Shown piece by piece: positions 35,921 to 50,794 of a stretch of DNA of 64,000 nt. Both the position numbers and the translations under genes were made by a program. Source of the DNA: Bacteroidales bacterium. GTDB taxonomy: Bacteria; Bacteroidota; Bacteroidia; Bacteroidales; Bacteroidaceae. Location of the stretch: assembly GCA_015060835.1 (NCBI GenBank), contig SUXT01000001.1, forward strand, positions 5,277-69,276, in the 5' to 3' direction. The first letter of the stretch is position 1. Each line of letters opens with the position of its first letter. The notes below the pieces were generated by a model, which worked only from the letters and a program-made list of their open reading frames with translations, made no database searches and was not told the DNA's origin.

Positions 35921-38900
35921 ATGAAAATAAAAGGATGTTTTCCATTATTTAAGTCAAACATTATTGCGCGTATTCAAATATATGTGCTAATGATTTTTCT
36001 ATTCATTCCCAGCGCGGGCTTTTGTGTTGAAGATTATTATGATAGACACATAATAATAGCAGTTGACCAGAAAGCTATTCGTGACTATGGTGATTACTCA
36101 AAAGCTAGGGATTCGCTATTCGCTGCGATAAAAAGTTTTCTAAGGAATGATGGCAAAATATCAGGCATGAATAAAACCATGTCATATATTTCTCCGGGAG
36201 TATATTTTGACAAAGAAACAGATAAAGTTTCTTTGTTTGCATTTGGAATTCCTGGTACAGATCAATATTCATATGATGATAGTCCATACGCGCGACTTAA
36301 AAGAAGTTTGCGTTATGATTATTCTTTCAATAAAATATCAGACTCCTTAATAAAAAGTAGAGCTGTGTATACTAAGAGCGGTGATCTTGAAAAATTTTTG
36401 AATAGTTTAAAACTTGTTTTTTATAATGATGAAATCCATAAACAAAAAAAACAGTATGGAAATTGTATTCTGAGTTTATCGCATTATGTAGATCCGTTGA
36501 TTATAAATCATATAGATGCTTCTGTAAAAGCGCGCGAATACTATCTTTTTATTGTTACTGATTATACATCTGGTGGTGGAGCTAACGATACAGGAGATAT
36601 CCGTAGAATGGAAGAACTGCTTGGTATGAAAAAACCAAATAGTAAAAGAAACCTATCCGATTTTAATACTAATGTAAATAATTTAATTTCAAAATATAGT
36701 CGTACAGAGATACTTAAAATACTGCCGTCAGGTTTCGGAGAAAGAGACCAGGTTGATCAGATTCAAGATTTTCCTATTATTAAAGGTAAGAAATTGTTGC
36801 TTGCCGGCAGCGAATGTTCCACATTATTTGTTGCTTCTGATATTAGATTGAAGCAATTGGAACTTGATGAGCCTTTTTATAATCTTCAGCCATCAAAGAT
36901 AACATTTGCGCATAGTGGAGATATTGTTCTCGAAAAAATAATGTTCACTATAAAGGATAAAAAAGGGAAAGTGCTTTTGAATGAAATCTTTGATGATTCC
37001 GAACAGCTCAAAGCAATGTATAATAAGACTGATAAAGGATATGAAATACCTGCTGTAAATGAATTAAATATAAGTAATTTAGCTGTTGGAGATTCTCTCT
37101 TTTTTGATTATGTGTTTTACACTAAATCAAGTAATGAAAATGGAGCGAATACAGTGCTTCCATATGTGTTTGTGGCAAATAAAGAATATTTAGTAACTGA
37201 TGATGTTTTTGTTCCCCGACCGCAAATGTCTAATTCGGATTTAGCGATGATATTTTTATCTATTTTGATTATCTTGTCAGTGGGTACAATACTATTGTAT
37301 TGGCTTTATAAAAAACGTGGACAGAACAGAGTCGTGAATCTTGATTTTAAAATCTGGCCTATAACTAACGAACGTTTCATGGAAGTTAAGAATAAACAGG
37401 TTTTAAAGTACGACTGTTGGTATTGGGATGGTCAAAGAAGAGACCATAATATTCGTGTAACAGGAAATTTAAATATTGAGGAAAAATCTTGGGCTAAAAA
37501 ATTCAAGTATATTGTAGAATTTTGGATTGAGGATATAGATGCGAATGCCGATTTTTCATTCCGTCCCAGTCTTCAAAAAAGAGAAGCAAATGGAAATGTA
37601 CGTGATTCCCGTCAATGGTACCCGGTACAGGAAGATTCTGACGGAACCGGTAATTTCAGTTGTGATGCGAATGTGTTTATAAGTGATGGCGAGAAACCTT
37701 CTCTTACAAAAGTACCTAATTTTAGTTTCGATAATATTTTGGAATTGAAGGTGAAGGTTAGAGTGAAAATGGTTGACAATGACGGCAAATTCATTAAATT
37801 TGTGAAAATTTCAAACAGTGACACAGATTGCATTGAAAAAGTTTATTCATTCATTGTTAAGCCGAAACTTGAAAATAGCAATGTTTGGATGGCATTTGAC
37901 CCGGGAACAACAGGATCATGTGCTGCATTCGGTGTATCAGCTCTTCCCACCGATTCAGATGATATTTTCTTGGCAATAAATAGGCATGAAAGTGAATCTG
38001 GTGATATCATCAATGATCCCTTGTTCCCCTCAAGGATAAGGATAAACAACAAATCCAAGCGTCTTTTTGCCAATACTCCCGCTCCTGCTGAACAGCTTAT
38101 CGAGGGAGAGGATTTTGATTTTGGAAATAAGGCCGAGATTTTTTGGAAAGCAAAGTCGAGCAACTGTTTCCAATCCATTAAAAAACTATTGGGTTATACA
38201 AACCTTCAAAAAATAGTAGATTCTCAAGGTCGTATTTCGGAAATTTCAGGACAAGATTTGGCGCATTTGTTGGTGAAAGGTTTGTATAAACACACTAAAG
38301 AATATATCGAATCAAATGCAAATAACTTCCAGAATATTTCTTCAATGTTTATGAAGAATGGTTCTTTCCATCCGCAACGTGCTATTGTAGCTGTGCCTAA
38401 CAATTATACACTTGTGAAAATACAAGAAATGGTTGATAGTGTCAAGAGAATTGGCGCATTCAATGAAGTGCACTACATTTATGAGTCAGAGTCCGTAATG
38501 ATGACTTATATAAGGAGCAATTGGAAACTTTTATTTGAACAAAGAGATGAACAGCAAGAGAAAGTCTATATAGTCTTTGATATGGGTGGTGCAACAATAA
38601 ATGCCACTGCTTTCAAATTGAATGTTTATCCTGATATTGTCAGAGGCAAGGCTAATGATATCAGCAGTATTGATGTAGAGACAATATCAAAAATTGGTTA
38701 CGGTGTCGGAGGTGATGATATTGACTACGCAATCATACAATTGATCTACGGAATTCCAACAATAAAAGCCCTTATTGCTGATGTAGAGAAGCATCAACGT
38801 GAACATAAAACAGCGCTTATAGAGTTGGCCCGCAAGATAAAACTGAGTTGGATAAGTTCTTATAATGGCAGTAGAAAGGCCGGTGGCATAACAAATAATA

Positions 38901-39859
38901 TTCATGACTTTTGGACAGAATTAGGTAATACATTTAAATACTCGTTTAAATTAAGTATTCCAATGTATACCGAAGAGGATGCTGCTTACTTAAATAAAGA
39001 AAGTGAAAAACATACTTTAATGAAGAAGTATGTACTTGATTCCGTAAAAAATGCTGTAATGAACTTATTGTCCACAATAGAGAATAAGTCAGATATTGTA
39101 TTGATAATGAGTGGTCGCAGTGTGTTGTATCCCGGTATAAACGGAGCTGTTGATGCAGCGTTGACATCTGCAGGCTGTGAAAAGATTGATAAGTGGAAAG
39201 GGTACTGTGATAAAAATGGAGTATTCGATTCGGAAAAGGTAAAATCTGCTGTAGCTATAGGAGCATGTTGGTATGCAATGTATAGCGACAGAATAAATAT
39301 GATTAACAATATAGTAACCACATCTTTTGGCTATATTGATTATGTTGAAGGTGAACAGAAATTTATTCCAATCGTGGAACGAAATAGCAGATATGACGCT
39401 AATGGCGAGTGTTCTGGCTTTGTTCAAACCATGGGTAGTACTCTTAGAACAGTGCGACTTGTTCAAATGCTAGGAATGAATTACGATGAAATATATTCTA
39501 CTCCCATCAAACACATGATGAATGTGCTTGATGAAGTACTTCCTCAACAGATTAACACATATGTCAACAAAGTAGAGATAACTGTTGATAATAAAAACAA
39601 CTTCTCATACACGATTTATGACGGTGTCAATGAAATAACAAAAATGAATAATCCTCATTCGCGTCTTGGCGACAACGATGTTAAGACTGAGATTGTAGAT
39701 GAAAACAGTTCAGCCTATGTTTATGCAACGCTTAACGAAAATGACTTGAATGTAAATAAGAATCAAGAGACTACATCGTCCGATGTCGAAACAACTCATG
39801 CAAATGAAGGTGCAACTAAAACAATAATACTTGAGAAAAATACAACAAAACGGTTCTAA
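35921..39859 (+). CDS. Giant bitopic membrane protein: exported N-terminal region (vWA-like fold without MIDAS?) - TM - cytoplasmic beta-rich region - Hsp70/actin-fold ATPase domain
   Basis: 1312 aa. N-terminal hydrophobic segment IQIYVLMIFLFIPSAGF. Internal TM LAMIFLSILIILSVGTILLYWLY followed by KKRGQNR. Hsp70 NBD motifs appear in order: MAFDPGTTGSCAAFG, AIVAVPNNYT..EMVDSVKRIGA, VYIVFDMGGATINATAF, GVGGDDIDYA, IVLIMSGRSVLYPG, AVAIGACWYA. Confidence 0.8.
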   Translation: MKIKGCFPLFKSNIIARIQIYVLMIFLFIPSAGFCVEDYYDRHIIIAVDQKAIRDYGDYSKARDSLFAAIKSFLRNDGKISGMNKTMSYISPGVYFDKETDKVSLFAFGIPGTDQYSYDDSPYARLKRSLRYDYSFNKISDSLIKSRAVYTKSGDLEKFLNSLKLVFYNDEIHKQKKQYGNCILSLSHYVDPLIINHIDASVKAREYYLFIVTDYTSGGGANDTGDIRRMEELLGMKKPNSKRNLSDFNTNVNNLISKYSRTEILKILPSGFGERDQVDQIQDFPIIKGKKLLLAGSECSTLFVASDIRLKQLELDEPFYNLQPSKITFAHSGDIVLEKIMFTIKDKKGKVLLNEIFDDSEQLKAMYNKTDKGYEIPAVNELNISNLAVGDSLFFDYVFYTKSSNENGANTVLPYVFVANKEYLVTDDVFVPRPQMSNSDLAMIFLSILIILSVGTILLYWLYKKRGQNRVVNLDFKIWPITNERFMEVKNKQVLKYDCWYWDGQRRDHNIRVTGNLNIEEKSWAKKFKYIVEFWIEDIDANADFSFRPSLQKREANGNVRDSRQWYPVQEDSDGTGNFSCDANVFISDGEKPSLTKVPNFSFDNILELKVKVRVKMVDNDGKFIKFVKISNSDTDCIEKVYSFIVKPKLENSNVWMAFDPGTTGSCAAFGVSALPTDSDDIFLAINRHESESGDIINDPLFPSRIRINNKSKRLFANTPAPAEQLIEGEDFDFGNKAEIFWKAKSSNCFQSIKKLLGYTNLQKIVDSQGRISEISGQDLAHLLVKGLYKHTKEYIESNANNFQNISSMFMKNGSFHPQRAIVAVPNNYTLVKIQEMVDSVKRIGAFNEVHYIYESESVMMTYIRSNWKLLFEQRDEQQEKVYIVFDMGGATINATAFKLNVYPDIVRGKANDISSIDVETISKIGYGVGGDDIDYAIIQLIYGIPTIKALIADVEKHQREHKTALIELARKIKLSWISSYNGSRKAGGITNNIHDFWTELGNTFKYSFKLSIPMYTEEDAAYLNKESEKHTLMKKYVLDSVKNAVMNLLSTIENKSDIVLIMSGRSVLYPGINGAVDAALTSAGCEKIDKWKGYCDKNGVFDSEKVKSAVAIGACWYAMYSDRINMINNIVTTSFGYIDYVEGEQKFIPIVERNSRYDANGECSGFVQTMGSTLRTVRLVQMLGMNYDEIYSTPIKHMMNVLDEVLPQQINTYVNKVEITVDNKNNFSYTIYDGVNEITKMNNPHSRLGDNDVKTEIVDENSSAYVYATLNENDLNVNKNQETTSSDVETTHANEGATKTIILEKNTTKRF

Positions 39860-39880
39860 ATTTATAAATTGAAGATTATT

Positions 39881-41968
39881 ATGAAAAGAGCAACTTTATA
39901 CTTTATTCTTATTATCTGTACCACATTTTGTTTTATATGTACAGCAAATGGTCGAAATGAGAATATTGAATTCAACCAAGAAGGTTGTAAATTAGAAAAT
40001 AATGGTGTACAATATTTTAAAATTAATGAAAATAGAGTCGTTTTTACCGGTGACGCTCTATATTTGAATGCTACAAAGAATGATAATATAACAATTAATA
40101 CGAATGATCCTAAAATAAAACCCATTCTTTCAGGCAATAAATATTATCGTGAGATAAATACAAATAATAAATTTGATATAGTAGTACTAAAAAAATACAA
40201 CAAACTAACTATTTACAACAAGAAGAAGAATAATAACGATACTATAAACTTAATTACTTTTGAAGCTTATGACGACACTTTACATCTAAAAGAAATAATT
40301 GAAACAGCGCAAATAAAATCTGACTTTCGTAAAGGTGGCTCTAAATCAAGAAGAGGTGCCGGCGACGATACAACTGATCAAAATGATACAATAATTCATC
40401 AGAATGATACAATAACTTTGGATTTATCATTAGGTAATCAATATTGGTCATTCGATGGAAGACTTATGTTGGGAACCGATACTATTGAAAATATTGTATT
40501 GAATAAAGATAAAAAAGATAATAAGATCAAGTTGCCGTTGAACACTTCTTTGCGTGACTCTCAAGAACTTTTCATCACAGGAAAACTTAAATATGGGGAA
40601 TTTGAACTTGATGCGAAGATTTTTAGTAAGAGATTGAGCGTCAAAGAGCCAATTGCCCTCTCTTTTTGGGGTAAAGCAAAAGAATGGTTCGTAGCTAAGC
40701 CTCTTTGGGTTGTAATTTTGTTAGGTGTCGCTGCGTTATTGTTGTTGGCCTTAATTGTATTCATAATCATTCTTGCTACAAAAAAATGCAGAAAGAAAGA
40801 GAATAATGATGACGGCAATTCGGATAATGGTAATAAAGGAACATCAAAAGATAATGGTAATAAAGGAACATCAAAGGATAATGGTAAAGCTCCTTTAAAT
40901 AAGGGAAAAAATAACGTTTCACCAAAACAGGAATCAGGAAAAGAAAAAAATGAAGCACCCACTTCCAATGAAGACGTTAAGTCTCCTCAGATAGCCGACA
41001 AGCTAAATGGAATAAGTGATAAACTTGTAGAAATAGAAAAGAAACTCAAAGAATCTACAAAATTCAACGATATTGAGAAAAGACTCAATGATATTGAGAC
41101 AAAGCTCAAAGACGACAGTAAATTCAAAAATATAGAAACAAGAATCAAGAGTATAGATGAAAAATTAGATGCGCCTAAAAAACTAAAAGAAACAGAAGCT
41201 GCTTTAGAAAAAACCAAAAAAGATTTGGAGAGTTCTAATAAAAAGAATACGGAACTTAGTTCAGATTTGTCAGTAGCTAAAGAAAACATTAGAACATTAG
41301 AAAAGGCTCAGGAGGTGTTTTCGTCCAGAATAACATATGTGCCTTTTGCTGAAGAGTATTGCAAGAAAATACAAAAACTGATTAGTGTTGCCGATCAAAT
41401 ATCTAAAGAGGCGAATGCATTGTATAGCTCTTCATCAATAGATGATCCTTGGCACATAATGAAGGCTATAACCAAATATAGTGTGGCTATATGTGGTATT
41501 GACATAGAGCAATTCTACACCGAAGTTAGAATGATAGGTAGCGGGCAGGTTGTTCTAAACGGTACGATGTTGTGCCAATATAATAAAGGAACCGATGAGA
41601 ATGAACTTAAAAATTCGACTAAGAACTATTTTTTCAGCACCTACCTAAGCCGATATATAGATGCTTTGGTCGTTTTCAATGAAACACTTATCGGTATGGA
41701 TAGATTGGTAAACGGTATTTCAAAAAGCGATGTTGCAAAATTCGTGCAATTCCGAGATAGAATTAACGAAATATTGTCCTCTATAGAAATAACTGTCAAT
41801 TCAGTGAAGTTGTTCGAGCCGGTAGGCCAAAAATTATATTTGCAGGCCGAATCAGGTTCTTATGGCAACTTTGAATCAGGTACAATCGTAGAAGTAGAGA
41901 ATTGTGTTGTATACCTGACAGGGTCTACAGCTCCATCTACCAAAATTAGAGTAAAAGTTCAAGAATGA
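39881..41968 (+). CDS. Bitopic membrane protein: exported N-domain - TM - low-complexity linker - coiled coil with tandem repeats - C-terminal globular domain
   Basis: The ATG at 39881 (MKRATLYFILIICTTFCFICTANG) is preferred over the TTG at 39869. TM LWVVILLGVAALLLLALIVFIIILAT followed by KKCRKKE. NGNKGTSKD occurs twice. It has repeated KFNDIEKRLNDIETKLKD-type heptad units. Confidence 0.75.
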   Translation: MKRATLYFILIICTTFCFICTANGRNENIEFNQEGCKLENNGVQYFKINENRVVFTGDALYLNATKNDNITINTNDPKIKPILSGNKYYREINTNNKFDIVVLKKYNKLTIYNKKKNNNDTINLITFEAYDDTLHLKEIIETAQIKSDFRKGGSKSRRGAGDDTTDQNDTIIHQNDTITLDLSLGNQYWSFDGRLMLGTDTIENIVLNKDKKDNKIKLPLNTSLRDSQELFITGKLKYGEFELDAKIFSKRLSVKEPIALSFWGKAKEWFVAKPLWVVILLGVAALLLLALIVFIIILATKKCRKKENNDDGNSDNGNKGTSKDNGNKGTSKDNGKAPLNKGKNNVSPKQESGKEKNEAPTSNEDVKSPQIADKLNGISDKLVEIEKKLKESTKFNDIEKRLNDIETKLKDDSKFKNIETRIKSIDEKLDAPKKLKETEAALEKTKKDLESSNKKNTELSSDLSVAKENIRTLEKAQEVFSSRITYVPFAEEYCKKIQKLISVADQISKEANALYSSSSIDDPWHIMKAITKYSVAICGIDIEQFYTEVRMIGSGQVVLNGTMLCQYNKGTDENELKNSTKNYFFSTYLSRYIDALVVFNETLIGMDRLVNGISKSDVAKFVQFRDRINEILSSIEITVNSVKLFEPVGQKLYLQAESGSYGNFESGTIVEVENCVVYLTGSTAPSTKIRVKVQE
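40823..40888 (+). repeat. 27-bp tandem repeat, 2.4 copies, in frame
   Basis: gataatggtaataaaggaacatcaaaa / gataatggtaataaaggaacatcaaag / gataatggtaaa. Confidence 0.85.
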
Positions 41969-41990
41969 TAAAACTATAAATATAACTATT

Positions 41991-43346: not shown

Positions 43347-43362
43347 AAAATATTTTTATATT

Positions 43363-43794
43363 ATGGAAACAATAAGACGATTTGCAGAATTTTTCTATGG
43401 GTTTTGTGTAGACATGAAACTTAAGTTATTTACACCTGCTCCTCAAGGTGATGATGGTTTAGCATGGTTGTTGATATTTTTACTTGGCTCCTCGGCGCTA
43501 TTTGCTGCAATTTATTATTTTGGGGTAGAAAGAGATGCAAGAAACGCAACACCTAAAAATTATTTGTCATTATATATCGCAGGTTATTTGACATTGGTCG
43601 CTGTTAATTTTGTGGGGCTTGCTTCGATAGCCAAGGATGGCGAACTCCCTTTAGTGGATATATTTTATGTATCATTGATTGATATCATTTATTATTCCAT
43701 TTTGTTTGAAATCCACTCATTATGGATGAAGGGATTATCAAAGAATTCCAAGTGTATAGATATTATATCAATATTGTTTAACAAGAATATATAA
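43363..43794 (+). CDS. Small polytopic membrane protein
   Basis: 143 aa with three to four hydrophobic segments. It is tightly packed in the operon, with 16-nt and 4-nt gaps. Confidence 0.65.
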   Translation: METIRRFAEFFYGFCVDMKLKLFTPAPQGDDGLAWLLIFLLGSSALFAAIYYFGVERDARNATPKNYLSLYIAGYLTLVAVNFVGLASIAKDGELPLVDIFYVSLIDIIYYSILFEIHSLWMKGLSKNSKCIDIISILFNKNI

Positions 43795-43798
43795 TCTG

Positions 43799-45388
43799 AT
43801 GAATATGATGAATAATTTATATGTATTTGCAATAGGTGGTAGTGGAGAGCGCGTAGTTAAATCTTTGGTTATGATGCTCACTACCGGAATGAAAATAGGA
43901 GCACAACGTATAAAACCGGTGTTTATTGACAACGATGTTGATTCTAAGGCGTTTAAAACATGTTGCGAACTTATAACGTATTATAATGCTACACCACAGT
44001 CGGATCACAAGATGGGTGCCAATACATTGTACCTTCAGGAGGACCAGGATTCTGCAACTTGGGGCAGTTTTTTCCATGTTCCAATAGACAAGCCTATTGT
44101 GCTCAATAAGGCAGGGGAGGCTATTGGCAATCTTCGAAATGTTATAGGGTATACCAGAGGAGAAACAGCTGCTCATAAATCAATTGAAGAGGAAATGAAT
44201 CTACTTTTCACTGATGACGATTTGAATATGCCGTTGAGTGTCGGTTTTGTTGGTAATCCCAATATAGGAAGTATAGTCTTGAATTCTCTTTCGTTGGATG
44301 GTGATGGTAGTACAGATTTTGGAAAAATTTTGGCTAATATCTCGGCTAATGATGGAGCTATAGTTATAGGTTCTCTTTTTGGTGGCACAGGAGCTGCCGG
44401 GCTTCCGTTGGTAATAAATAAATTAAAATCGTTGCCTCCGGCTAAAAAACCTATATTGGGTGGCATTGCTGTATTACCTTATTTTAATACAGATCAGCAA
44501 GGCGATAAGCATCCCGATCTTGATACAAAAAAATGGGATGTAAAATCCGGTTCCTTTGTCGCAAAAACTCGTGCCGCCTTGATGTACTATGATGATTATA
44601 TGAAGTATGATTATGACTGTTTATATTATGTCGGCAATAGTCAGGAACTGGATACATTCCATCATTGTGTCGGTGGTGAAAAACAGGATAATCCTTACCA
44701 TATCGTAGAAATGATGTCTGCACTCTCTGTTATTGATTTTTCTATGGCTACACATTTGGATAAAATAGAATATAAGTCTCCTATCTGGGGATTTACAGAC
44801 CAAAATAATTCGAATGTTTCAGGAATCTATAATTCTGATTTGGCAAAGTCTTTAGTTAAATTCAGAATGTTGAAAGAGATGTTCTATTCGTCGGGTGAGT
44901 CATTTTTGAAGTGGGCGATAGATATAAGGAAAGATTACTGTGATAGAACTGGGTTCAATGAGCCTTTCCGACTTTCGGTTTGCGGACAAAGCAGTGCAAA
45001 TTCACAAGCGTGGGGAATTGCCAATTTGTTTAGAGAATTTGATAAGTGGATGAGTGAACTCTCTTCTGATAGAGTAAGCAGACCATTTTTGCTTTTCAAT
45101 AGTTCGGCACAAAATGTAAACGGCGATAACATTACTAAAGAATTCTATTCTGAGCGTAAAGAGGACGAGGTAAATTTTGGTATTGCAAAATCTGAATTAA
45201 AAGGTTTTTTCAAGAAAACTCTTGCTGCTGTAAAAGCTGATATCGCAAATGAAATGCAGAATGCCTATAATCAACTTTACCCAGGAGGAATAAAACAAGC
45301 AGATACTGCGAAAACATTGTCTATTTTGTTGAAAATAATATCAAAGGCATTGGATAATGTGTTGGAAAAGAATTGTATAGAATTATAA
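43799..45388 (+). CDS. Divergent FtsZ/tubulin-superfamily GTPase-like protein
   Basis: 529 aa. LYVFAIGGSGERVVKSLVMM compares with FtsZ IGVGGGG.NAV. AIVIGSLFGGTGAAGLPLVINKL compares with the FtsZ/tubulin signature GGGTG(T/S)G. ILGGIAVLPYF compares with FtsZ VGVVTKPF. The three motifs occur in the correct order and spacing. Confidence 0.7.
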   Translation: MNMMNNLYVFAIGGSGERVVKSLVMMLTTGMKIGAQRIKPVFIDNDVDSKAFKTCCELITYYNATPQSDHKMGANTLYLQEDQDSATWGSFFHVPIDKPIVLNKAGEAIGNLRNVIGYTRGETAAHKSIEEEMNLLFTDDDLNMPLSVGFVGNPNIGSIVLNSLSLDGDGSTDFGKILANISANDGAIVIGSLFGGTGAAGLPLVINKLKSLPPAKKPILGGIAVLPYFNTDQQGDKHPDLDTKKWDVKSGSFVAKTRAALMYYDDYMKYDYDCLYYVGNSQELDTFHHCVGGEKQDNPYHIVEMMSALSVIDFSMATHLDKIEYKSPIWGFTDQNNSNVSGIYNSDLAKSLVKFRMLKEMFYSSGESFLKWAIDIRKDYCDRTGFNEPFRLSVCGQSSANSQAWGIANLFREFDKWMSELSSDRVSRPFLLFNSSAQNVNGDNITKEFYSERKEDEVNFGIAKSELKGFFKKTLAAVKADIANEMQNAYNQLYPGGIKQADTAKTLSILLKIISKALDNVLEKNCIEL

Positions 45389-45404
45389 AATTGGTTAGAC
45401 CATT

Positions 45405-48400
45405 ATGAATAAATTTGAATTTGGAATGAAAGCCGTACAACAAGATGGTTTAAACGGCGATTTTAAAATATACGATAGCAATTTGGGTGGCAATTATAAC
45501 CCCTATAATTCAACCTATTTCGATAGAGAGGAAAACAGAGTAGTTTGTCCAGATAATGGAAGGATAACATCTATACCTTCACCTTATGCTCGTATGCATA
45601 TAACAGACCTTGCATTTAGGGAAGCAAACAGTGGTAGTGCAAATGGTGAGCCGCCCATAGCTCTGTCTCTTGATTATAATATAGCATTGTCCCATTGTCT
45701 GGATATTTTCGAGATGTTGTTTTATTCAGATGCAGAAGACTTGGAAGAAAAGGGTGTTTCGGTAGAAAAGATAGATCTTGTAAGAACCAATACTACAAAT
45801 GTAGAGGAAAAGGCATTATTGAATGCTAACCCTAAACTTAAAGCGTATATTTCAACGTTGGATTTATATCGCGATGAATATGTGAGCGTTTTGGATCACA
45901 TCAGAAATGACAAACATGTAAATCAATATTTGTTTGATTTTAATTCGTTGTATCTGTTTAAATATAAAGGAAAGGTTTTTGCGTCAACATCGCCGCTTAC
46001 CGGATTCTTTGCTACAGCCAATTGTAACATAGGGGATCTGGTGATTAACGGTAACAATATTCTTAGCTCAAATCCTAATCATATAAGAGAAATTGGACAG
46101 CGCACATCAGAATTCCGTGAATTCATGTACTCTTTGTTGTTTCATACAGGTTTGTGTCATATATTTAAGAATTTGTTTATATATGTAAAGAATAGCTTGG
46201 ACGCAAATCAAATAGCAACCATAGACCAGAACCCGTTCCAAAATCAAAGGCAATACCTTAAGTTTAACATTGGCGGGCAACATTTGCTTCAAGTTAAAGA
46301 TAATCTGTATATCAGACCGGGCGGAATAGATTGTTCATATTTGAAATATTATCTTTATCTTGCCCCTCCTGTTGATTTTGCAATAACGGAACAGGATTAT
46401 GCTACAAAATTAAATGAACGCCAATTTAACGGTCAGTTGGTTTCGTGGTATGGTGTAAATGATATTTTGTCAGATGCGCTATTTGTTTTGACGTATGATA
46501 TAAATGACAATTATGTATCGGTGCCATACGTAGATATAAATAAAGATTGTAAGGCATACAAACGTTGTCTTTTACCAATAAAACGAGGAGCTCTTGACTT
46601 CTTTACAGTAGACGAGTTGTGTAACGGTTTGAGAATAGAGAAAAGGGATCATAGTAAATATGTAGCAACCCTTAAAATAACTTTGTTGAATGGTGGAACT
46701 ATAACATTGCGTCGTGAGTACACAGCCGGTGATGCTTGCTATCCTAATGGCAAGGTATTCCAAGGTGATGATATGAAGCCTTTTGCATTCGGTATTTATC
46801 CGTTTGTGAAGTCTACTCAATTTGCCAATATGTACAAAGTGTTATTCTATAATCATTTTGATAAATATTCACTTAAATTTTATAAAAAGGATGCAAATGG
46901 TATAAATCCATTGCTTGAAACAGAAACGAAAGTAAATAAGACTAATAACATCCATAACCAAGAATTTGGTGTCAATTGCGAGTATCACGACATCAATATA
47001 CAAACGAATATCCTTGAGTTTGCCGAAATTGAAGTTTCAGGATTAACATCGCTTATTATTCCCAATCTGCGCATGGTCGGGGAAGCCAATGATGGCGCAA
47101 GTATTGCAGTTGATCATAATACAGAAGTTACTGTGGCTATAGACTTGGGTACATCCAATACTTACGTTGCATATAGTCGCAGGCCTTTCGGTGGCGGTAC
47201 CATAGCTGAAAAAGATATTATTCCCATTTCGACGCATCATAGCGGTAATGTCGAATGGAATGAACTTACATTCATGAATAAAAAGTGTGAACAAGCAGAT
47301 TTGGCAACAGCACCGGAAAAGAATAGGGAAGATTTGTATTTGCGGGTAAGTGATTTCGATAATAAGCCCGTAGATACATGGCTATCTTCTCAGTTGAACG
47401 AATTTATTCCTTCACGCATTGATCCAAACGGTGATAATTATAGTTTCCCAATTCCGACTGTTATAAATTTCTTGCGCAGGAATTGTGGTCGCCCTCAATT
47501 CGATCCTAATGCCCAAGAATCTCCGTTGATAGATTTTGCTATACCTTTTGCATATTATGAGAGAGGTATAAGAACCGGAGGAAGTGGTGCGAATGTATAT
47601 GATTTGATAAGCAATGGAAGCGACTTTAAATGGTATGAAAAGCGCAATAATAAGGGTACTCTCGTTAAAAATGAAGTATTCGAGGCGGCTTTCAAGGCTT
47701 TCTTGTCTGAATTGATGTTCATCGTCCGTTGTCACTTGATTTGCAGTGGGCATGATTTGACGCTATGCAAAATAATCTGGTCGTATCCGTTATCATTCTC
47801 GAGTTCATTGCGTGATGAATACGATAGAGCGTGGAAAGAGGCATACAAAAAATATATTAACCCAACAGTCGCCAATAATATTGATGATTATGTTAAGTAT
47901 ACAAATGAATCCCGTTCTCCTATCTATGCGTGTATAAATAATCCGGGAGCTATAAACCATTTGACAGTTTTGTTGGATATTGGTGGTGGCTCAACCGATG
48001 TAATAGGATACAAAAATAATAATGTCCAATTCGTTACTTCATTCGGTTTTGCCGGCAACGCCTTGTATTTGGCATCAGGTATGAATACAGTCTCAGAAGG
48101 AGATCAAATGGACGGTACATTACTAAAGAGGTTTGTTATAAAACAGAGAATTTTCAGTGGTATAGGTTCCAACCCCAATTCTGCCGAAATGGAGGAGAAA
48201 AAAATCAGTACTTCTGATTCTATATGCACTCTTATGAATTATGGTTTCGCTAAGGCAGAATATGATTTTGTGAAGATTTTTCAAAATGATTCAGCGCAAT
48301 TTATGTTGCAACTGCATAATGCAGCCATAATATATCATGTGGCTCAGTTGTGCAAAATTTATTCTCCTGATGAACTTCCTGATACAATATATCTGACCGG

Positions 48401-48938
48401 TAATGGCTCTAAACAATTTGAACTTAATATAGCCAAGGATTCTATGATAAGAAACATCTTCGCTGCTGTTTATGAAGATAGAACAATAAATGAAATTGAC
48501 AAAATAAATATATGCAGCAATCCTAAACCTAAGGCAGCAACTGTAAATGGTGCATTGTTGGGCTTGAGTCAAGGTACATTGGCTACAAACAGGGAGTCTG
48601 CTACTAATAGAGTGGTAATGCTTGGTGATTGCGCCCACTCTTATAGAGTTGACCCGATTGTTGATTATGCCGTTGTTGATAATAAAGACGGTTACAAGGA
48701 AGCTGTTAAGGAAAATGTCAATAAGTTCTTTGAATACTTCTATGATAAGGTATATACAACAGCAAGTCCTGTAAGAACTATAGAACATGTGAAGGAGGCT
48801 ATTGACTATGTATCTGGCGATCCGAAATTGAATCTACCTGATAATGGTATTATTTCAGATTCGTTCTTCTTCCAATACATAGCTTTGGTTATGCAGAAAT
48901 TGTCAATGGACTTGGTTAAAGCAGGTTATGCCAAGTAA
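45405..48938 (+). CDS. Large soluble protein: unassigned roughly 560-aa N-region plus C-terminal Hsp70/actin-fold ATPase domain
   Basis: 1177 aa. VTVAIDLGTSNTYVAY (phosphate-1), IIWSYPLSF, LTVLLDIGGGSTDVIGY (phosphate-2), TIYLTGNGSKQF and ATVNGALLG (adenosine region) are present. I saw no TM segment. Confidence 0.75.
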   Translation: MNKFEFGMKAVQQDGLNGDFKIYDSNLGGNYNPYNSTYFDREENRVVCPDNGRITSIPSPYARMHITDLAFREANSGSANGEPPIALSLDYNIALSHCLDIFEMLFYSDAEDLEEKGVSVEKIDLVRTNTTNVEEKALLNANPKLKAYISTLDLYRDEYVSVLDHIRNDKHVNQYLFDFNSLYLFKYKGKVFASTSPLTGFFATANCNIGDLVINGNNILSSNPNHIREIGQRTSEFREFMYSLLFHTGLCHIFKNLFIYVKNSLDANQIATIDQNPFQNQRQYLKFNIGGQHLLQVKDNLYIRPGGIDCSYLKYYLYLAPPVDFAITEQDYATKLNERQFNGQLVSWYGVNDILSDALFVLTYDINDNYVSVPYVDINKDCKAYKRCLLPIKRGALDFFTVDELCNGLRIEKRDHSKYVATLKITLLNGGTITLRREYTAGDACYPNGKVFQGDDMKPFAFGIYPFVKSTQFANMYKVLFYNHFDKYSLKFYKKDANGINPLLETETKVNKTNNIHNQEFGVNCEYHDINIQTNILEFAEIEVSGLTSLIIPNLRMVGEANDGASIAVDHNTEVTVAIDLGTSNTYVAYSRRPFGGGTIAEKDIIPISTHHSGNVEWNELTFMNKKCEQADLATAPEKNREDLYLRVSDFDNKPVDTWLSSQLNEFIPSRIDPNGDNYSFPIPTVINFLRRNCGRPQFDPNAQESPLIDFAIPFAYYERGIRTGGSGANVYDLISNGSDFKWYEKRNNKGTLVKNEVFEAAFKAFLSELMFIVRCHLICSGHDLTLCKIIWSYPLSFSSSLRDEYDRAWKEAYKKYINPTVANNIDDYVKYTNESRSPIYACINNPGAINHLTVLLDIGGGSTDVIGYKNNNVQFVTSFGFAGNALYLASGMNTVSEGDQMDGTLLKRFVIKQRIFSGIGSNPNSAEMEEKKISTSDSICTLMNYGFAKAEYDFVKIFQNDSAQFMLQLHNAAIIYHVAQLCKIYSPDELPDTIYLTGNGSKQFELNIAKDSMIRNIFAAVYEDRTINEIDKINICSNPKPKAATVNGALLGLSQGTLATNRESATNRVVMLGDCAHSYRVDPIVDYAVVDNKDGYKEAVKENVNKFFEYFYDKVYTTASPVRTIEHVKEAIDYVSGDPKLNLPDNGIISDSFFFQYIALVMQKLSMDLVKAGYAK

Positions 48939-48946
48939 TAATATAT

Positions 48947-48988
48947 ATATCAGACTTTGATACTGTGAATGGTATCAAAGTCTGATAT
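48947..48988 (+). terminator. Perfect 17-bp stem hairpin inside the island gene array (terminator, attenuator or processing site)
   Basis: atatcagactttgatac-tgtgaatg-gtatcaaagtctgatat lies 9 nt after the stop at 48938 and 14 nt before the ATG at 49002. No clear T-run follows. Confidence 0.5.
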
Positions 48989-49001
48989 GAAATAACAAAT
49001 T

Positions 49002-49628
49002 ATGGGAATGTTTATTAATGAGAATGAAACTGCAGAAAAGCAATTTAGAGATATTGATAAAACTCTGAATGGCTTGTTTGATAGAATTGATTCGGTTGAG
49101 GAGAAACTTGAAACTTTAAAGCTTGTGTTGGGCAAACTGTCTGACAGTTTGCAAGAGATGTCGTTATCTATAAAAACGGCATTAAATCAAGCGTGTGATG
49201 TAAATGAGAGTATAGAGACATCATGCACAATTCCTGCTTCTGAAGAAAAAGAGCCAATACACGAATGTGCCCCTGAAGAGAAAGTCGGTGCAGACGTAAA
49301 AGTCGAAAGTGAGTTTGAAATACGCTTTTTGGGTGCACCTTCGGGTAGTGGTTTTGAAGTGATGAACGAAAGAACCGAAAAAAGTATTTCTACCTTATAT
49401 ATACTTGAAATTGACAGAGCCAATAAGATAGCATATTTCTATCCTAATAAAGAAAATATTGCCAAACTTGTATATGATAAGCCGCATAATCTTGAACCCG
49501 TATGCGACATTGAAGGGGTGGTTGATTCTTTGTGTGACTTGTATATAAGTAAAGATGATTATGGTGTTTTGCATCTTGAAGCTCCGGATTATTGGAAAGT
49601 TCAAAAAAAATGTCTTATTAAATGTTAG
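49002..49628 (+). CDS. Hypothetical protein, N-terminal coiled coil
   Basis: 208 aa. It has a heptad-like N-terminus (LFDRIDSVEEKLETLKLVLGKL), an acidic linker and a small C-terminal domain. Confidence 0.6.
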   Translation: MGMFINENETAEKQFRDIDKTLNGLFDRIDSVEEKLETLKLVLGKLSDSLQEMSLSIKTALNQACDVNESIETSCTIPASEEKEPIHECAPEEKVGADVKVESEFEIRFLGAPSGSGFEVMNERTEKSISTLYILEIDRANKIAYFYPNKENIAKLVYDKPHNLEPVCDIEGVVDSLCDLYISKDDYGVLHLEAPDYWKVQKKCLIKC

Positions 49629-49632
49629 TTGA

Positions 49633-50712
49633 ATGAAGAAAATATTAATTTACATTTGTGTTCTTATTTTGGTGGTAGTTATGATCTGGCCGGAGCAGAA
49701 TCTGAAAATAGCTTCTGTAGTGGATGGTAATACCGTAGAATTGAATAATGGAACAACTGTGCATCTTATAGGTGTTAATAGTACTAACGAAGGTAAAATC
49801 GAACTGGAGGGATTGATGGGAAAAAGTTTGTTGTTGGTTCCCGATAAAACTGCATTCTTTAATCCCGATCTTATTGACAAAACCTCTACGGTATATGCTT
49901 ACGCTGTTGTTGAAGATGACAATGTGTGCATAAACGCATCGTTACTCAAAAATCGCTATTCTAATCTCGAAGAGAACTCATATTTGAATGATAGTCTGAA
50001 TTCATTCAGAAAATATGCCGAGTCAGGGCGAAGAGCTTTGACACCTGAGCCTACCCCAACTCCTAAACCAGTCATAGATTATCAGGAGGAGGAGATATAT
50101 CTCGATCCGTATATACCATCTTCTGAACGCAAGCATAGTGCATGGTATAATGATGGAAGTATGAATTTGGAGATGCTTGAGGAGGCTTGTGACTTTAATT
50201 TGCCATATACAAAAAAATTTGCAAATGAACTTGCTGCACGTTCACCTGGTAGCTTCAATCCAGGACAGATATGTGAAATTTTTGCATATTGCTATAAGAA
50301 ATGGAGTTATGTCAACGATCCCGCAGATGTTGAATATGTCGCTCGTGCATCAGAAACAATTCATGGTTCATTAATTGGTGATTGCGACGATTACGCAGTT
50401 TTGATGGCGTCATGTATACTTGCAGTTGGAGGTCGCGCTTGTATAAACACTGGTTATAATTCCAGTGGTGGACATGCTTTTACCGAGGTTGATATATCCA
50501 ATTTTGATGAAAATGAAGTCTATAGTGTTATATGTAAATATTTCCCTGAGTATAATATACAAAATCTGAATTACAGAATAGACGGACAACACAAGTGGTT
50601 GAATCTGGATTGGCAAACTCAATATCCCGGAGGTAAATATTATGATTGTTCTTATAAGTGGGACAGTTATCCTTATGAAAAAGGCAAGTGGGTTTGGAAA
50701 AAATTGAGATAA
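49633..50712 (+). CDS. Membrane-anchored/exported protein: SNase-like OB-fold (catalytic residues apparently not conserved) plus transglutaminase-like cysteine protease domain
   Basis: 359 aa. N-terminal hydrophobic segment ILIYICVLILVVVMIW. VVDGNTVELNNGTTVHLIGVNS resembles the thermonuclease DGDT...RL.GIDAPE strand pattern without the Arg/Asp/Glu. GDCDDYAVLMASCILAVGGRA ... GGHAFTEVD fits the transglutaminase-core Cys/His arrangement. Confidence 0.6.
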   Translation: MKKILIYICVLILVVVMIWPEQNLKIASVVDGNTVELNNGTTVHLIGVNSTNEGKIELEGLMGKSLLLVPDKTAFFNPDLIDKTSTVYAYAVVEDDNVCINASLLKNRYSNLEENSYLNDSLNSFRKYAESGRRALTPEPTPTPKPVIDYQEEEIYLDPYIPSSERKHSAWYNDGSMNLEMLEEACDFNLPYTKKFANELAARSPGSFNPGQICEIFAYCYKKWSYVNDPADVEYVARASETIHGSLIGDCDDYAVLMASCILAVGGRACINTGYNSSGGHAFTEVDISNFDENEVYSVICKYFPEYNIQNLNYRIDGQHKWLNLDWQTQYPGGKYYDCSYKWDSYPYEKGKWVWKKLR

Positions 50713-50794
50713 TAAGAAACTGTTTGAATTTTCTTGAAAGAAAACTATATTTGCGATGTTCATTTCGGCTTATTTAACGGAGTTTTTCTCCTTC

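Follow-up and report, generated by a model that had tools for sequence, protein, structure and literature searches.

Operons that pair FtsZl1 (FtsZ-like 1, Pfam Tubulin_2) with vWA proteins were predicted by Makarova and Koonin in 2010, and a membrane-remodelling role was proposed for them; these operons also encode P-loop GTPases, protein kinases, OmpA-like proteins and families B1-B9, and the amb2956-2961 operon of M. magneticum includes a giant, 1626-aa DnaK-family protein (PMC2875224). DO-GTPase/GAP1-N2 conflict systems with tubulin, vWA or HSP70 themes were described by Kaur, Burroughs, Iyer and Aravind in 2020, the tubulin and HSP70 themes being non-overlapping and confined to Firmicutes and Actinobacteria (PMC7159879). 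Vaguely similar combinations of tubulin, vWA and HSP70 components have been catalogued computationally in both studies (PMC2875224, supplement 5; PMC7159879).

The cassette reported here comprises eight genes (P1 to P8) of a gut or rumen Bacteroidales bacterium and occupies positions 35921-50712 of the window, that is, the whole 64,000-nt stretch of DNA that was analysed. The reading that fits best is a hitherto undescribed, short-form relative of the FtsZl1/vWA systems, whose function we infer. The preliminary description knew of no characterised system of this composition, and none was found to match. Its suggested link to the FtsZ-like/vWA operons proved to be the right lead; the Sphingomonas orthologue of P5 scores above the Tubulin_2 threshold. 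In both systems, a divergent gene of the tubulin/FtsZ superfamily adjoins a membrane-associated vWA gene and genes for lineage-specific membrane proteins, the spread over phyla is patchy, and both are known from genes only; furthermore, the DnaK-family giant of amb2956-2961 provides a precedent for P1. The two differ in that FtsZl1 proteins measure ~850-1200 aa and carry a long coiled coil, whereas P5 has 529 aa and no coiled coil, and in that the core of the present system contains a giant ATPase of the actin fold, together with a small polytopic protein, and no GTPase of the P-loop type. A search of the 2010 lists (PMC2875224) for names of carriers of this core found Sphingomonads, Prevotella, Alistipes, Parabacteroides and Fibrobacter all to be absent.

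With the DO-GTPase/GAP1-N2 systems, which have also been proposed to be NTP-dependent assemblies (PMC7159879), the cassette shares a constant NTPase core accompanied by vWA, tubulin-family and HSP70-family proteins, as well as many TM components and variable peptidase-type partners. The defining pair of DO-GTPase and GAP1 is, however, missing from the cassette, and the tubulin-like protein is here an obligate partner of an actin-fold giant, at times fused to it, in Gram-negative and Gram-positive phyla. A possible relation to SrfB-like proteins was not borne out: Pfam SrfB/SrfC gave no match to P1, P6 or their family members at E<=0.1, and the likeness to SrfABC is limited to the presence of large uncharacterised bacterial proteins within an operon.

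Organisation of the cassette

The eight co-directional ORFs of the + strand are present in the window sequence exactly as first described, and all coordinates and gaps (4-63 nt) were reproduced. They are P1 (35921-39859, 1312 aa), P2 (39869-41968, 699 aa), P3 (41991-43346, 451 aa), P4 (43363-43794, 143 aa), P5 (43799-45388, 529 aa), P6 (45405-48938, 1177 aa), P7 (49002-49628, 208 aa) and P8 (49633-50712, 359 aa), and the successive intergenic gaps from P1 to P8 measure 9, 22, 16, 4, 16, 63 and 4 nt. The start of P2 is a TTG in the ORF list, while gene callers on identical contigs use the ATG at 39881, giving 695 aa; a 27-nt tandem repeat lies inside this gene at 40823-40876.

The TAnnTTTG box that had been noticed at 35875 is indeed there: direct reading of the + strand gives TATATTTG, a Bacteroidota-type -7 box, at 35875-35882, 38 nt 5' of the P1 ATG, and we infer that it is a putative promoter element of the cassette. 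A scan for sigma-70-type promoters returned no more sites than shuffled sequence, which is the expected outcome for Bacteroidota. As to the strong hairpin said to close the operon, a perfect 19-bp stem with a 4-nt loop does lie 3' of P8 (50794-50835, + strand), but it has no T-tail, and the intrinsic-terminator scan made no call there. Another hairpin, with a 17-bp stem and no strand assigned, is located at 48945-48988, within the 63-nt gap between P6 and P7.

The tubulin-like protein P5 and the actin-fold protein P6

P5 is a short-form, Tubulin_2-type putative GTPase of the tubulin/FtsZ superfamily, with a C-terminal domain modelled as alpha-helical. It carries a T1 motif (G13GSGER), a T3-like motif (G149FVGNPNIG) and a T4 motif (G195GTGAAG), and the Pfam Tubulin profile matches 36/38 members of its family (best 3.3e-6), with Tubulin_2 matching 17/38. 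When the AF2 model (pLDDT 84.2, pTM 0.88) was compared with the PDB using Foldseek, tubulins, TubZ and CetZ were the top matches (probability 0.96-1.0), with low TM-scores of 0.2-0.38 over ~300 aligned residues; against BFVD, the top match was a phage Tubulin (E=3.9e-4). Profiles, model and structural matches agree on the FtsZ/tubulin assignment originally made. The fold and nucleotide-binding motifs are those of FtsZ, TubZ, CetZ and PhuZ, from which P5 differs by its large inserts and a different C-terminal domain.

P6 is soluble and consists of a conserved N-terminal region of ~570 aa, containing S56IPSPYARMH, and a C-terminal half that forms an actin/MreB-like ASKHA domain with the motifs D580LGTSNT, E835, D858IGGGSTD and G1000NGS. 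Its AF2 model (pLDDT 86.4, pTM 0.79) matched MreB best in Foldseek (E=1.2e-7, target TM 0.5-0.58), followed by Arp/actin and the DnaK NBD. A PDB profile search gave Ppx/GppA as the best match (1.3e-3), and Pfam FtsA matched 26/40 P6 members; P6 is found in 1499 representative clusters. The protein had been described as carrying a second Hsp70-fold domain. This stands insofar as P6 is a putative ATPase of the Hsp70/actin fold, but its nearest relatives are MreB, actin, FtsA and Ppx. Since MreB is the best structural match, Hsp70 is the wrong label. P6 is not a paralogue of P1. In fold and nucleotide-binding motifs P6 matches MreB, FtsA and ParM, although it is ~3x larger and possesses the extra 570-aa N-terminal region.

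The genes for P5 and P6 adjoin in 62/66 loci, and elsewhere the two are fused in a single 1611-aa protein (P0363 and P0364); in P0363, a Rosetta-stone fusion, residues 1-418 match P5 (E ~1e-100) and residues 518-1592 match P6 (E ~2e-182). Because they are nearly always adjoining and at times form one polypeptide, P5 and P6 are predicted to be functional partners. To our knowledge, no known system couples members of the tubulin and actin superfamilies as a conserved or fused pair.

Membrane-anchored, exported and accessory components

P1 was first described as a protein with an exported N-region, a single TM segment and a cytoplasmic Hsp70 nucleotide-binding domain, and both topology prediction and profile searches agree with this. 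A signal anchor and an exported domain (~33-440) precede the TM segment (441-459), followed on the cytoplasmic side by a beta-rich region, the Hsp70-type domain (D660PGTTGS, E855, D887MGGATIN and S1064GRS) and a C-terminal domain. DnaK NBDs of the PDB matched the family profile at E=1.6e-7, and 107 Hsp70 chains fell at E<=1; Pfam HSP70 matched 7/20 family members (best 2.1e-6), and NCBIfam HscA gave a match at 3.6e-4. The domain aligns to the DnaK NBD including the phosphate-1, phosphate-2 and adenosine motifs; a substrate-binding domain was not detected in P1, alignments to full-length DnaK chains ending at about residue 360. Unlike Hsp70, DnaK and HscA, P1 is a bitopic membrane protein of 1312 aa that has an exported domain of 400 aa, and its cassette encodes no DnaJ or GrpE partner. 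P2 likewise conforms to its description as a bitopic coiled-coil protein: an exported N-domain (~22-282), a TM segment (283-301) and a low-complexity repeat are predicted, followed by a charged, coiled-coil-like cytoplasmic segment (~350-500) and a C-terminal globular domain, with weak matches to the coiled-coil families Tropomyosin, SMC and V_ATPase_I.

P3 is N-terminally anchored and exported, and contains a probable vWA domain followed by a beta-rich C-domain. Its MIDAS residues are D65-x-S67-x-S69, T136/137 and D161; in a cross-phylum alignment (A4) the triad is conserved and D161 is invariant. Pfam VWA_2, VWA or vWA-TerF match 5/25 P3 members (best 0.0038), and PDB entry 8s05 aligns at the MIDAS positions with E=0.34. 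Of the proposal that P3 is a membrane-anchored, outward-facing vWA protein, the anchor, the export and the MIDAS triad hold, while the profile matches are statistically weak; P3 is probably a MIDAS vWA protein. P4 is, as proposed, small and polytopic; three TM segments are predicted in it.

Downstream of P6, P7 is a soluble protein with a coiled-coil-like N-terminal segment, a globular C-terminal domain and weak matches to coiled-coil families. Some ORF lies 3' of P6 in 58 loci, these ORFs splitting into lineage-specific clusters, and a P7-like gene is found there in ~30 loci; P7 fills a variable fifth-gene slot after P6. P8 is exported and N-terminally anchored, and its N-domain, common to the family, leads into a peptidase domain of the transglutaminase-like (papain-fold) type, in which C251, H281 and D326 are candidate catalytic residues. 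It had been read as an SNase-OB plus transglutaminase-like protein: Transglut_core scores 24.4 bits against a Pfam threshold of 23, but the SNase-OB assignment of the N-domain has no statistical support. Transglut_core is present in 9/20 P8 family members (best 1.1e-8) and is replaced by Trypsin_2 in the other 11 (11/20, best 2.6e-24), with the N-domain shared. The predicted peptidase module at the P8 slot is exchangeable, being transglutaminase-like here and trypsin-like in sister cassettes.

Distribution and conserved core

All eight genes are syntenic, in the same order, in ~11 Bacteroidales species with P5 identities of 38-58%; in the gene-neighbourhood check called for in the preliminary description, the operon is real and conserved. 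Judged by this retention of gene order and similar sizes at such P5 identity, the eight-gene arrangement exceeds chance. Missed by that description was the conserved unit itself, a core of four to five genes found across many phyla. This core consists of P3 (exported, membrane- or lipid-anchored), P4 (3-4 TM), P5 (~500-600 aa) and P6 (~1100-1250 aa, cytoplasmic), and the four genes occur together in Bacteroidota, Fibrobacteria, Ignavibacteria, Sphingomonadales, Bacillota and Actinomycetota; Sphingomonas has a free-standing five-gene module. P3 lies 5' of P5 in 53 loci spanning phyla, and an ORF of 138-230 aa, mostly with 3-4 TM segments, lies directly 5' of P5 in 60/66 loci, homology joining 38 of these 60 P4-like ORFs, Sphingomonadales included. 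The Bacteroidales version adds P1, P2, P7 and P8 to the core; P1 is present in 27 loci, nearly all of them in Bacteroidota, and P2 in 15. The system is sparse, a pattern-seeded scan of 185,579 species genomes yielding only 63 loci.

Genomic setting and mobility

The GC content of the cassette is 0.352, against 0.520 in metH and 0.469 at positions 1-35000. The block is thus more AT-rich than metH (35% vs 52%), as had been noted, but the AT-rich tract extends beyond it to ~56000 and takes in a separate caspase-gene module. On the left, two tandem copies of a dispersed intergenic repeat of ~85 nt lie at 35443-35612 (+ strand), and one copy lies on the right at 51023-51105 (+ strand). The repeat core TTATTCCGAGnCGCAnCCTATCTT occurs at only two positions of the window, 35577 and 51070, and the repeat family is scattered over 23 metagenome contigs without the cassette. 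Strain-to-strain synteny ends at ~51119, directly past the right-border repeat. Flanks vary among genomes, one of them containing an integrase, and in a cultured isolate the cassette is interrupted by an IS.

The block at 35921-50712 is one imported, horizontally acquired operon. The cassette sits in a variable island and is accessory and mobile in character, as seen from its sparse loci, varying flanks, breakpoint at the repeat border, IS disruption, peptidase swap and caspase-fold neighbours. Caspase-fold genes are the commonest recurring neighbours (5/146 flank ORFs, plus the window itself), and the neighbouring caspase-fold protein in the window has a BACON domain, a domain typical of Bacteroidales surface proteins. 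Flank genes are otherwise mostly housekeeping genes with few defence matches, and 3/146 are MotB/OmpA-like. The idea that homologous clusters sit in defence islands found no clear backing in the flank ORFs. The abortive-infection-type defence reading has no direct support, PADLOC returning zero matches among the eight cassette proteins and no homologues being found on plasmids, phages or IMG/VR contigs.

Proposed function and alternatives

The cassette encodes an envelope-spanning multi-NTPase system built on a cross-phylum core, and our preferred reading, a tentative one, is that it acts on the envelope as an accessory stress or conflict response. The trans-envelope layout first suggested is supported by topology prediction. 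Such a parts grammar has precedents in the FtsZl1/vWA operons (PMC2875224) and in the tubulin/vWA/HSP70 conflict systems (PMC7159879). A rather less probable alternative is a physiological machine for membrane remodelling or vesicle biogenesis, in which the inner membrane would be shaped or severed by tubulin- and actin-like polymers, the vWA and bitopic proteins being the anchors. P5 is akin to Tubulin_2/FtsZ-like proteins and occurs together with a vWA-like protein anchored in the membrane and with numerous membrane proteins, the MotB/OmpA-like flank ORFs echo the OmpA association of 2010 (PMC2875224), and defence genes are not enriched in the flanks. However, the module contains no ESCRT-like or dynamin-like parts, and its very sparse and patchy distribution, host-foreign composition, varying flanks, IS-disrupted copy and exchangeable exported peptidase agree better with an accessory module than with a conserved cell-biological machine. 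More doubtful still is an integrin-analogous apparatus for surface adhesion or contact, whose MIDAS vWA protein and peptidase would engage external ligands (such as host glycoproteins, other bacteria or matrix) and whose linkage to polymers in the cytoplasm would provide a mechanical anchor, signalling or motility on surfaces. Exported domains in 4/8 proteins, the conserved MIDAS triad, the BACON domain next door and the enrichment in gut and rumen Bacteroidales are in keeping with it; yet the core also occurs in free-living Sphingomonadales, Ignavibacteria and Actinomycetota with very different envelopes, the module conserves no outer-membrane or secretion-system component, and the exported parts are predicted to be inner-membrane anchored or lipoproteins.

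Membership of the 'GTPase-centric' DO-GTPase/GAP1 conflict systems of Kaur et al. 2020 is highly improbable, even though tubulin-family, vWA and HSP70-family parts are all named in that work (PMC7159879). It is refuted on the defining feature, the DO-GTPase: a Walker A motif is missing in 8/8 cassette proteins, none of which matched a GTPase family in Pfam, NCBIfam or PADLOC, and with no P-loop GTPase the cassette is therefore not such a system. Moreover, the tubulins found there are long proteins with coiled coils fused to them, from Firmicutes and Actinobacteria (PMC7159879). Known partition systems of plasmids and phages are driven by tubulin-like and actin-like NTPases. P5 counts TubZ among its fold matches and the cassette is located in a variable island, but a TubZRC- or ParMRC-like DNA-segregation module on an integrative island is disfavoured to the point of being scarcely credible: exported and membrane proteins are always part of the core, P6 is ~3x the size of ParM, there is no conserved DNA-binding adaptor or centromere-like repeat, and the searches of plasmids, phages and IMG/VR were negative.

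Under the preferred reading, a periplasmic or envelope-located ligand, which could be a foreign protein or an envelope component, would be bound by the exported vWA/MIDAS domain and by the P1 and P2 ectodomains, and P4 and the bitopic proteins would relay the signal through the inner membrane. On the cytoplasmic face, this signal would govern nucleotide-dependent assembly or switching of the P5-P6 tubulin-like/actin-like complex, with the Hsp70-type domain of P1 perhaps working as an ATPase for remodelling or clamping. The envelope itself would be the target of the output, either by remodelling of the membrane or by controlling the exported peptidase. The conflict reading of the cassette is circumstantial, given the PADLOC result, the housekeeping-rich flanks and the plasmid, phage and IMG/VR searches, and the exported peptidases suit envelope processing or cell/host interaction as well as phage defence. 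The system would answer stress or conflict as an accessory and would not be part of housekeeping.

Operon Layout and Composition

The eight open reading frames of the cassette, encoding proteins P1 to P8 in gene order, lie on the + strand at 35921-50712, exactly where the preliminary description had placed them, and are separated by gaps of 9, 22, 16, 4, 16, 63 and 4 nt. The block had also been described as AT-rich, and its GC fraction over 35921-50712 is indeed 0.352, compared with 0.520 in metH, which lies upstream, and 0.469 across the first 35 kb. The AT-rich tract extends past the cassette to ~56 kb, the extra stretch being a separate module. A Bacteroidota-type -7 box, TATATTTG, can be read from the sequence at 35875-35882, with 38 nt separating it from the first ATG downstream. 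The hairpin proposed to close the operon is present as a perfect 19-bp stem at 50794-50835, but it has no T-tail and was not called by an intrinsic-terminator scan. A further hairpin with a 17-bp stem (48945-48988) occupies the 63-nt interval between P6 and P7, the sole long intergenic gap of the operon, where it may act as an attenuator or as a site of processing, setting the expression level of P1-P6 apart from that of P7-P8.

A second -7-type TATATTTG box is located at 50746-50753, between the P8 stop codon and the terminal hairpin, and gene callers place a 54-aa ORF at 50756-50920 on identical contigs; a small transcript or sRNA overlapping the terminal hairpin could be produced near 50746-50920. 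A sigma-70 promoter scan was uninformative (69 sites versus 67 expected), and Rfam returned no match above threshold across the locus.

Direct scans of the eight proteins against Pfam, NCBIfam and PADLOC produced sub-threshold hints only, with the exception of Transglut_core. Since these library scans were nearly blank, family alignments were constructed, together with AlphaFold models of P5 and P6. Taken as a whole, the analysis confirms the original observation and partly supports its interpretation: most of the proposed folds were recovered, whereas the Hsp70 label for P6 and the suggested relationship to SrfB were not.

Distribution and the Conserved Core

Pattern-seeded scanning of 185,579 species genomes identified 63 loci, which were then searched with iterated HMMs (HMMER-alignment iteration). 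Relatives of P5 and of P6 number hundreds each, all of them unnamed or annotated as 'hypothetical'. A synteny check located the eight-gene cassette, with P5 proteins 38-58% identical, in Bacteroidaceae, Muribaculaceae, Prevotellaceae, Paludibacteraceae and other Bacteroidales MAGs. Loci were found in Bacteroidota, Fibrobacteria, Ignavibacteria, Alphaproteobacteria (Sphingomonas, Novosphingobium and Sandarakinorhabdus), Bacillota, Spirochaetes and Actinomycetota, and the cultured carriers comprise Bacteroides cellulolyticus, Prevotella lacticifex, a Muribaculaceae isolate and Sphingomonas species.

Among the 66 loci examined with the iterated HMMs, P5 and P6 are adjacent in 62, a small ORF with three to four TM segments directly precedes P5 in 60 (38 of these being linked by homology, including those of Sphingomonadales), and a P3-like gene lies upstream of P5 in 53. 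An ORF follows P6 in 58 loci and divides into lineage-specific families. P1, P2, P7 and P8 are essentially Bacteroidota additions in the same comparison, and in Sphingomonas the five-gene module stands alone, flanked by neighbours on the opposite strand.

P5 Is a Predicted Member of the Tubulin_2 Branch

The proposal that P5 is an FtsZ/tubulin-like protein is borne out by both profile and fold comparisons. The 529-aa protein carries motifs that are invariant in its family: G13GSGER as the T1 loop, G149FVGNPNIG as a T3-like (FtsZ-like) loop and G195GTGAAG as the T4 loop, the criteria employed for the T1 and T4 nucleotide-binding loops of the tubulin/FtsZ superfamily being GxGGxG and GGGTG[ST]G, respectively. 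Pfam Tubulin was matched by 36 of 38 family members (best E = 3.3e-6). Tubulin_2 (PF13809) was weakly matched by 17 of the 38 close relatives (best 0.0045); the window protein gave no match to this profile at E<=0.1, and the Sphingomonas orthologue reached 32.9 bits against Pfam's own threshold of 27. The PDB sequence matches were CetZ and FtsZ only, aligned on T3/T4.

The AF2 model of P5 (pLDDT 84.2, pTM 0.88) retrieved tubulins, phage TubZ and CetZ as its leading fold matches with a probability of 0.96-1.0, and the top match in the viral library (BFVD) was a phage 'Tubulin'. TM-scores were low (0.2-0.38), the alignment being limited to the GTPase domain of ~300 residues with large inserts. 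A conserved G292GEKQDN following the core helix is a candidate T7 loop. The model ends in an alpha-helical C-domain and has no long coiled coil, and P5 and its relatives measure ~490-620 aa. The motifs, the Pfam and fold matches and the Tubulin_2 score of the Sphingomonas protein together place P5, as a prediction, in the Tubulin_2 or 'FtsZ-like' branch, of which it would be a divergent member of short form.

P6 and the P5-P6 Pairing

P6 is a protein of 1177 aa in which the ASKHA motifs D580LGTxNT, D858xGGGSxD and G999NGS are invariant, and in which the 'NES.SP' connect motif contains E835. Its AF2 model (pLDDT 86.4) yielded 233 PDB fold matches at E<=0.001, the best being to MreB (E = 1.2e-7, target TM 0.5-0.58); Arp/actin and DnaK nucleotide-binding domains (NBDs) rank next. 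Within the family of 40 members, Pfam FtsA was matched by 26, Ppx-GppA by 18, MreB by three and HSP70 by none, and the best PDB profile match was Ppx/GppA. P6 had been described as an Hsp70-fold protein; the actin-fold ASKHA assignment stands, but since its sequence affinities are to FtsA, Ppx and MreB and never to HSP70, and MreB is preferred to DnaK as a fold match, 'Hsp70' is not the best label.

The top fold matches of the full model all fall on the actin-fold half. The first ~570 residues are strongly conserved (for example, S56IPSPYARMH), and no relatives of this N-terminal region were detectable. In three family members of 1353-1380 aa (P0250, P0252 and P0254), the N-terminal region of the profile is matched twice, at profile positions ~40-465 and again from ~320, a sign that part of the putative N-terminal domain may have been duplicated internally.

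An exhaustive profile search returned 1,499 P6-family clusters at 50% identity, of which 714 reach E<=1e-30 and almost all measure 1,100-1,250 aa. Two of these clusters are natural P5-P6 fusions. In P0363 (1,611 aa), the P5 profile aligns to residues 1-418 (E ~1e-100) and the P6 profile to residues 518-1592 (E ~2e-182), while P0364 exhibits the same order on a truncated gene. Such fusions, combined with the near-universal adjacency of the two genes, provide strong evidence that P5 and P6 act as one unit.

P3 and P4

P3 had been described as a vWA protein with a MIDAS. Its motif triad, with vWA spacing, is indeed present in the 451-aa protein (D65-x-S67-x-S69, T136/137 and D161) and is conserved over 25 cross-phylum sequences, D161 being invariant, but the profile and structure statistics are weak. 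Pfam families of the vWA type (VWA_2, VWA and vWA-TerF) were weakly matched by five of the 25 members (best 0.0038), the single PDB match had an E-value of 0.34, and none of the relatives recovered in the last homologue search carried precomputed Pfam domains. The triad is positioned after a signal anchor, where many homologues possess a lipoprotein-like Cys. P3 is thus probably a vWA protein. P4 (143 aa) has three predicted TM segments.

The Bacteroidales Additions: P1, P2, P7 and P8

The Hsp70 NBD claimed for P1 was recovered with a 20-sequence family profile (best E = 1.6e-7, to DnaK NBDs). Nearly all of the 107 PDB matches of this profile (A3) are Hsp70s, and Pfam HSP70 was matched by seven of the 20 family members. 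An Hsp70 substrate-binding domain was not detected, full-length DnaK alignments being limited to NBD residues ~64-360, and Pfam identified no DnaJ or GrpE among the cassette proteins. Hydropathy analysis of the 1312-aa protein predicts that residues 33-440 are outside, that a TM segment spans 441-459 and that the ATPase is inside. Paralogy between P1 and P6 was considered and rejected (BLAST blank, hhalign probability 1.8%), and the two are separate ASKHA lineages. The possibility that the exported domain of P1 is a degenerate copy of the P3 vWA was likewise rejected (hhalign probability 0.1%).

P2 is predicted to be bitopic, with a charged, coiled-coil-like cytoplasmic segment. Its gene contains a perfect 27-nt tandem duplication (40823-40876) that repeats the peptide DNGNKGTSK in a low-complexity juxtamembrane segment, and this segment is likely to be variable in length. 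P7 is soluble, with a coiled-coil-like N-terminus.

P8 possesses an N-terminal anchor and, as had been proposed, a transglutaminase-like domain, scoring 24.4 bits with Transglut_core against a Pfam threshold of 23; nine of 20 relatives also match this family (best 1.1e-8). C251, H281 and D326, read from the sequence, form a candidate Cys-His-Asp triad. The SNase-OB N-domain, in contrast to the transglutaminase-like part of the claim, was not upheld: neither Pfam (E<=0.01) nor sequence and profile searches of the PDB detected an SNase, the resemblance being confined to a motif (VVDGNTVEL...LIGV). B. cellulolyticus, P. lacticifex and the Muribaculaceae isolate MF13079 carry a second type of Bacteroidales cassette. 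Here the N-domain of P8 is retained and the transglutaminase-like module is exchanged for a trypsin-like serine protease; Trypsin_2 was found in 11 of 20 P8-family members (best 2.6e-24), with PDB matches to HtrA/DegS.

Borders, Flanking Genes and Mobility

The cassette is preceded by metH, smpB and a Yip1-family gene. Downstream, the AT-rich tract encodes an exported 345-aa ORF (51229-52266) followed by two signal-peptide-bearing caspase-fold (Peptidase_C14) proteins at 52263-53033 and 53037-54929, the latter with a BACON domain; a third signal-peptide-bearing gene of this fold lies further downstream at 57635-58513. Caspase-fold genes also occur near the cassette in three other loci (L016, L025 and L027). 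Peptidase_C14 is the most recurrent family in the flanks (five of 146 ORFs), which suggests a loose association with the cassette.

An intergenic repeat of ~85 nt, with the core TTATTCCGAGnCGCAnCCTATCTT and the ends AAAGATAG...CTATCTT, is present in two tandem copies on the left (35443-35612) and in one copy on the right (51023-51105). It is one of a family of dispersed and often tandem repeats, which also occurs in 23 gut and rumen metagenome contigs without the cassette (L071-L093). For this reason it was rejected as a cassette-specific att site, and it is best described as a REP/MITE-like recombination hot spot rather than a dedicated att site. Two variants of the repeat differ at paired positions (AAGGCGAG with GAGCCGCAT versus AAGCCGAG with GAGGCGCAG), a hint that the element is structured; it has no Rfam match.

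A closely related strain from another sample (L068) carries an identical cassette and left flank, while on the right RecQ, ADP-ribosylglycohydrolase and HSP20 take the place of the caspase block. When ~50984-51119 was compared with L068 17186-17575, identity was seen to stop at 51119, just past the right copy of the repeat. L068 also has an extra insert of ~270 nt; a portion of it shares 94% identity with window 6999-7135 and therefore represents another dispersed element.

The genes that adjoin the cassette in other genomes are either a tyrosine integrase together with an Eco57I-type RM gene, or glycoside hydrolases. The former arrangement is found in a goat-caecum Bacteroidaceae MAG (L001/L002, 17123-21590), where a tyrosine recombinase, a DUF2971 gene and an Eco57I-type N6-methyltransferase/restriction gene directly follow the cassette; of the loci inspected, only this one has surroundings that are clearly mobile or defence-like. 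Muribaculaceae bacterium MF13079 (L026) is cultured and has a complete genome; its cassette contains two 100% identical 373-aa ORFs, at 6988-8109 (-) and 12948-14069 (+), both reading as IS copies with an IS4-type Y-x2-R-x3-E-x6-K signature. One copy interrupts P6, and the system has therefore probably lost its activity in this isolate. The 146 flanking ORFs gave few PADLOC matches and mostly housekeeping Pfam families, with no defence-island enrichment. Variable flanks, the breakpoint, the IS copies and the housekeeping neighbours together indicate that the system is accessory and horizontally mobile, and that it lies outside classical defence islands.

Relationship to Known Systems

The closest described systems are known from computation. 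FtsZl1, now Pfam Tubulin_2, was defined by Makarova and Koonin in 2010 in a purely computational study, as proteins of ~850-1,200 aa with an FtsZ-like domain at the N-terminus, a long coiled coil and an alpha-helical C-domain; their operon partners are vWA proteins, novel GTPases, kinases and OmpA-like proteins, with a giant DnaK in one operon (PMC2875224). Kaur et al. 2020, also purely computationally, placed Firmicutes and Actinobacteria versions in 'DO-GTPase/GAP1-N2' conflict systems, which have separate tubulin, HSP70 and kinase themes, one or two TRAFAC-clade P-loop DO-GTPases and a GAP1 protein made up of GAP1-N, -M and -C domains (PMC7159879). Tubulin_2 proteins were still an uncharacterised outgroup in a 2023 survey (PMC9871819).

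Like the FtsZl1/vWA operons, the cassette combines a tubulin-family protein with a membrane vWA theme, the vWA nature of P3 being probable only, and it belongs with these FtsZ-like/vWA multicomponent membrane systems, a known though only predicted kind. Nevertheless, P5 is short and has no long coiled coil, unlike FtsZl1, and in place of the P-loop GTPases of FtsZl1 operons the cassette has a fixed partner, the giant actin-fold P6. Differences in gene sizes and content led us to reject the idea that the cassette is one of the Firmicutes FtsZl1 operons of 2010 (families B8 and B9), and no carrier genus of the cassette core that was looked up by name appears in the 2010 lists. What is new is the obligate, sometimes fused tubulin-like/actin-like pair and the cross-phylum four-gene core of P3, P4, P5 and P6. 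The combination of tubulin-like, vWA and actin-fold proteins is unnamed in the full-text literature searched, a coverage that leaves out most subscription journals.

Possible Mechanism and Alternatives

The operon encodes a trans-envelope set of parts: soluble cytoplasmic P5, P6 and P7, bitopic P1 and P2, polytopic P4, and exported, anchored P3 and P8. Three predicted NTPase domains are included, with the nucleotide-binding motifs intact in each. In the mechanism that we tentatively propose, a ligand would be bound at the MIDAS site of P3, and perhaps also by the ectodomains of P1 and P2, and the signal would be relayed by P4 and the bitopic P1 and P2. On the cytoplasmic side it would govern nucleotide-dependent assembly or switching of a P5-P6 complex, with the Hsp70-type domain of P1 serving as a remodelling ATPase, and the output would be exerted on the envelope as membrane remodelling or as control of the exported peptidase. 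We regard this whole sequence, from sensing to P5-P6 switching to envelope output, as possible, if somewhat short of probable.

The main rival is a machine that remodels membranes as part of normal physiology, a role proposed for the FtsZl1 operons, with which the cassette shares the tubulin-family and membrane vWA theme; we consider this rival unlikely, while an adhesion or contact apparatus seems more doubtful still. Membership of the DO-GTPase systems, which also have tubulin and HSP70 themes, is highly improbable and was rejected because the cassette has no P-loop: the motif [GA]xxxxGK[ST] occurs in none of the eight proteins, and no GTPase family was identified in them by Pfam, NCBIfam or PADLOC. 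A DNA-partition module is disfavoured to the same marked extent, and no homologues were found on plasmids, phages or IMG/VR contigs. Two further suggestions of the preliminary description fared poorly: the SrfB and SrfC profiles of Pfam were unmatched, and a role as a defence device is unproven, PADLOC-DB 2.0 having returned only coiled-coil noise at E>=0.0096 and the flanks not being defence-enriched.

A bolder reading, which we offer as speculative and on balance unlikely, is that the P3-P4-P5-P6 core defines an unrecognised class of prokaryotic machine. A tubulin-superfamily GTPase and an actin-superfamily ATPase would form a heteromer, fused in some lineages, and an integrin-like MIDAS vWA sensor, itself exported, would be coupled to this heteromer through the membrane; such an 'outside-in' link from an extracellular ligand to polymers of cytoskeletal type in the cytoplasm would have arisen independently of eukaryotes and spread horizontally over at least seven phyla.

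The function of the Tubulin_2 or 'FtsZ-like' branch has been unexplained since its description in 2010, and the present locus defines a compact sub-class with a fixed set of partners: a giant ATPase of the actin fold, which in some cases is fused to the tubulin-like protein, plus a small membrane protein and a MIDAS protein that is exported. The P6 family alone comprises ~1,500 unnamed clusters at 50% identity. Since cultured carriers have been identified, the role of these divergent tubulins can be tested directly. Prokaryotic cytoskeleton biology would gain a new arrangement from an obligate tubulin-like/actin-like pairing and, if the system is a conflict or envelope-stress device, it would represent a mechanistically new type in the defence repertoire of gut Bacteroidales.
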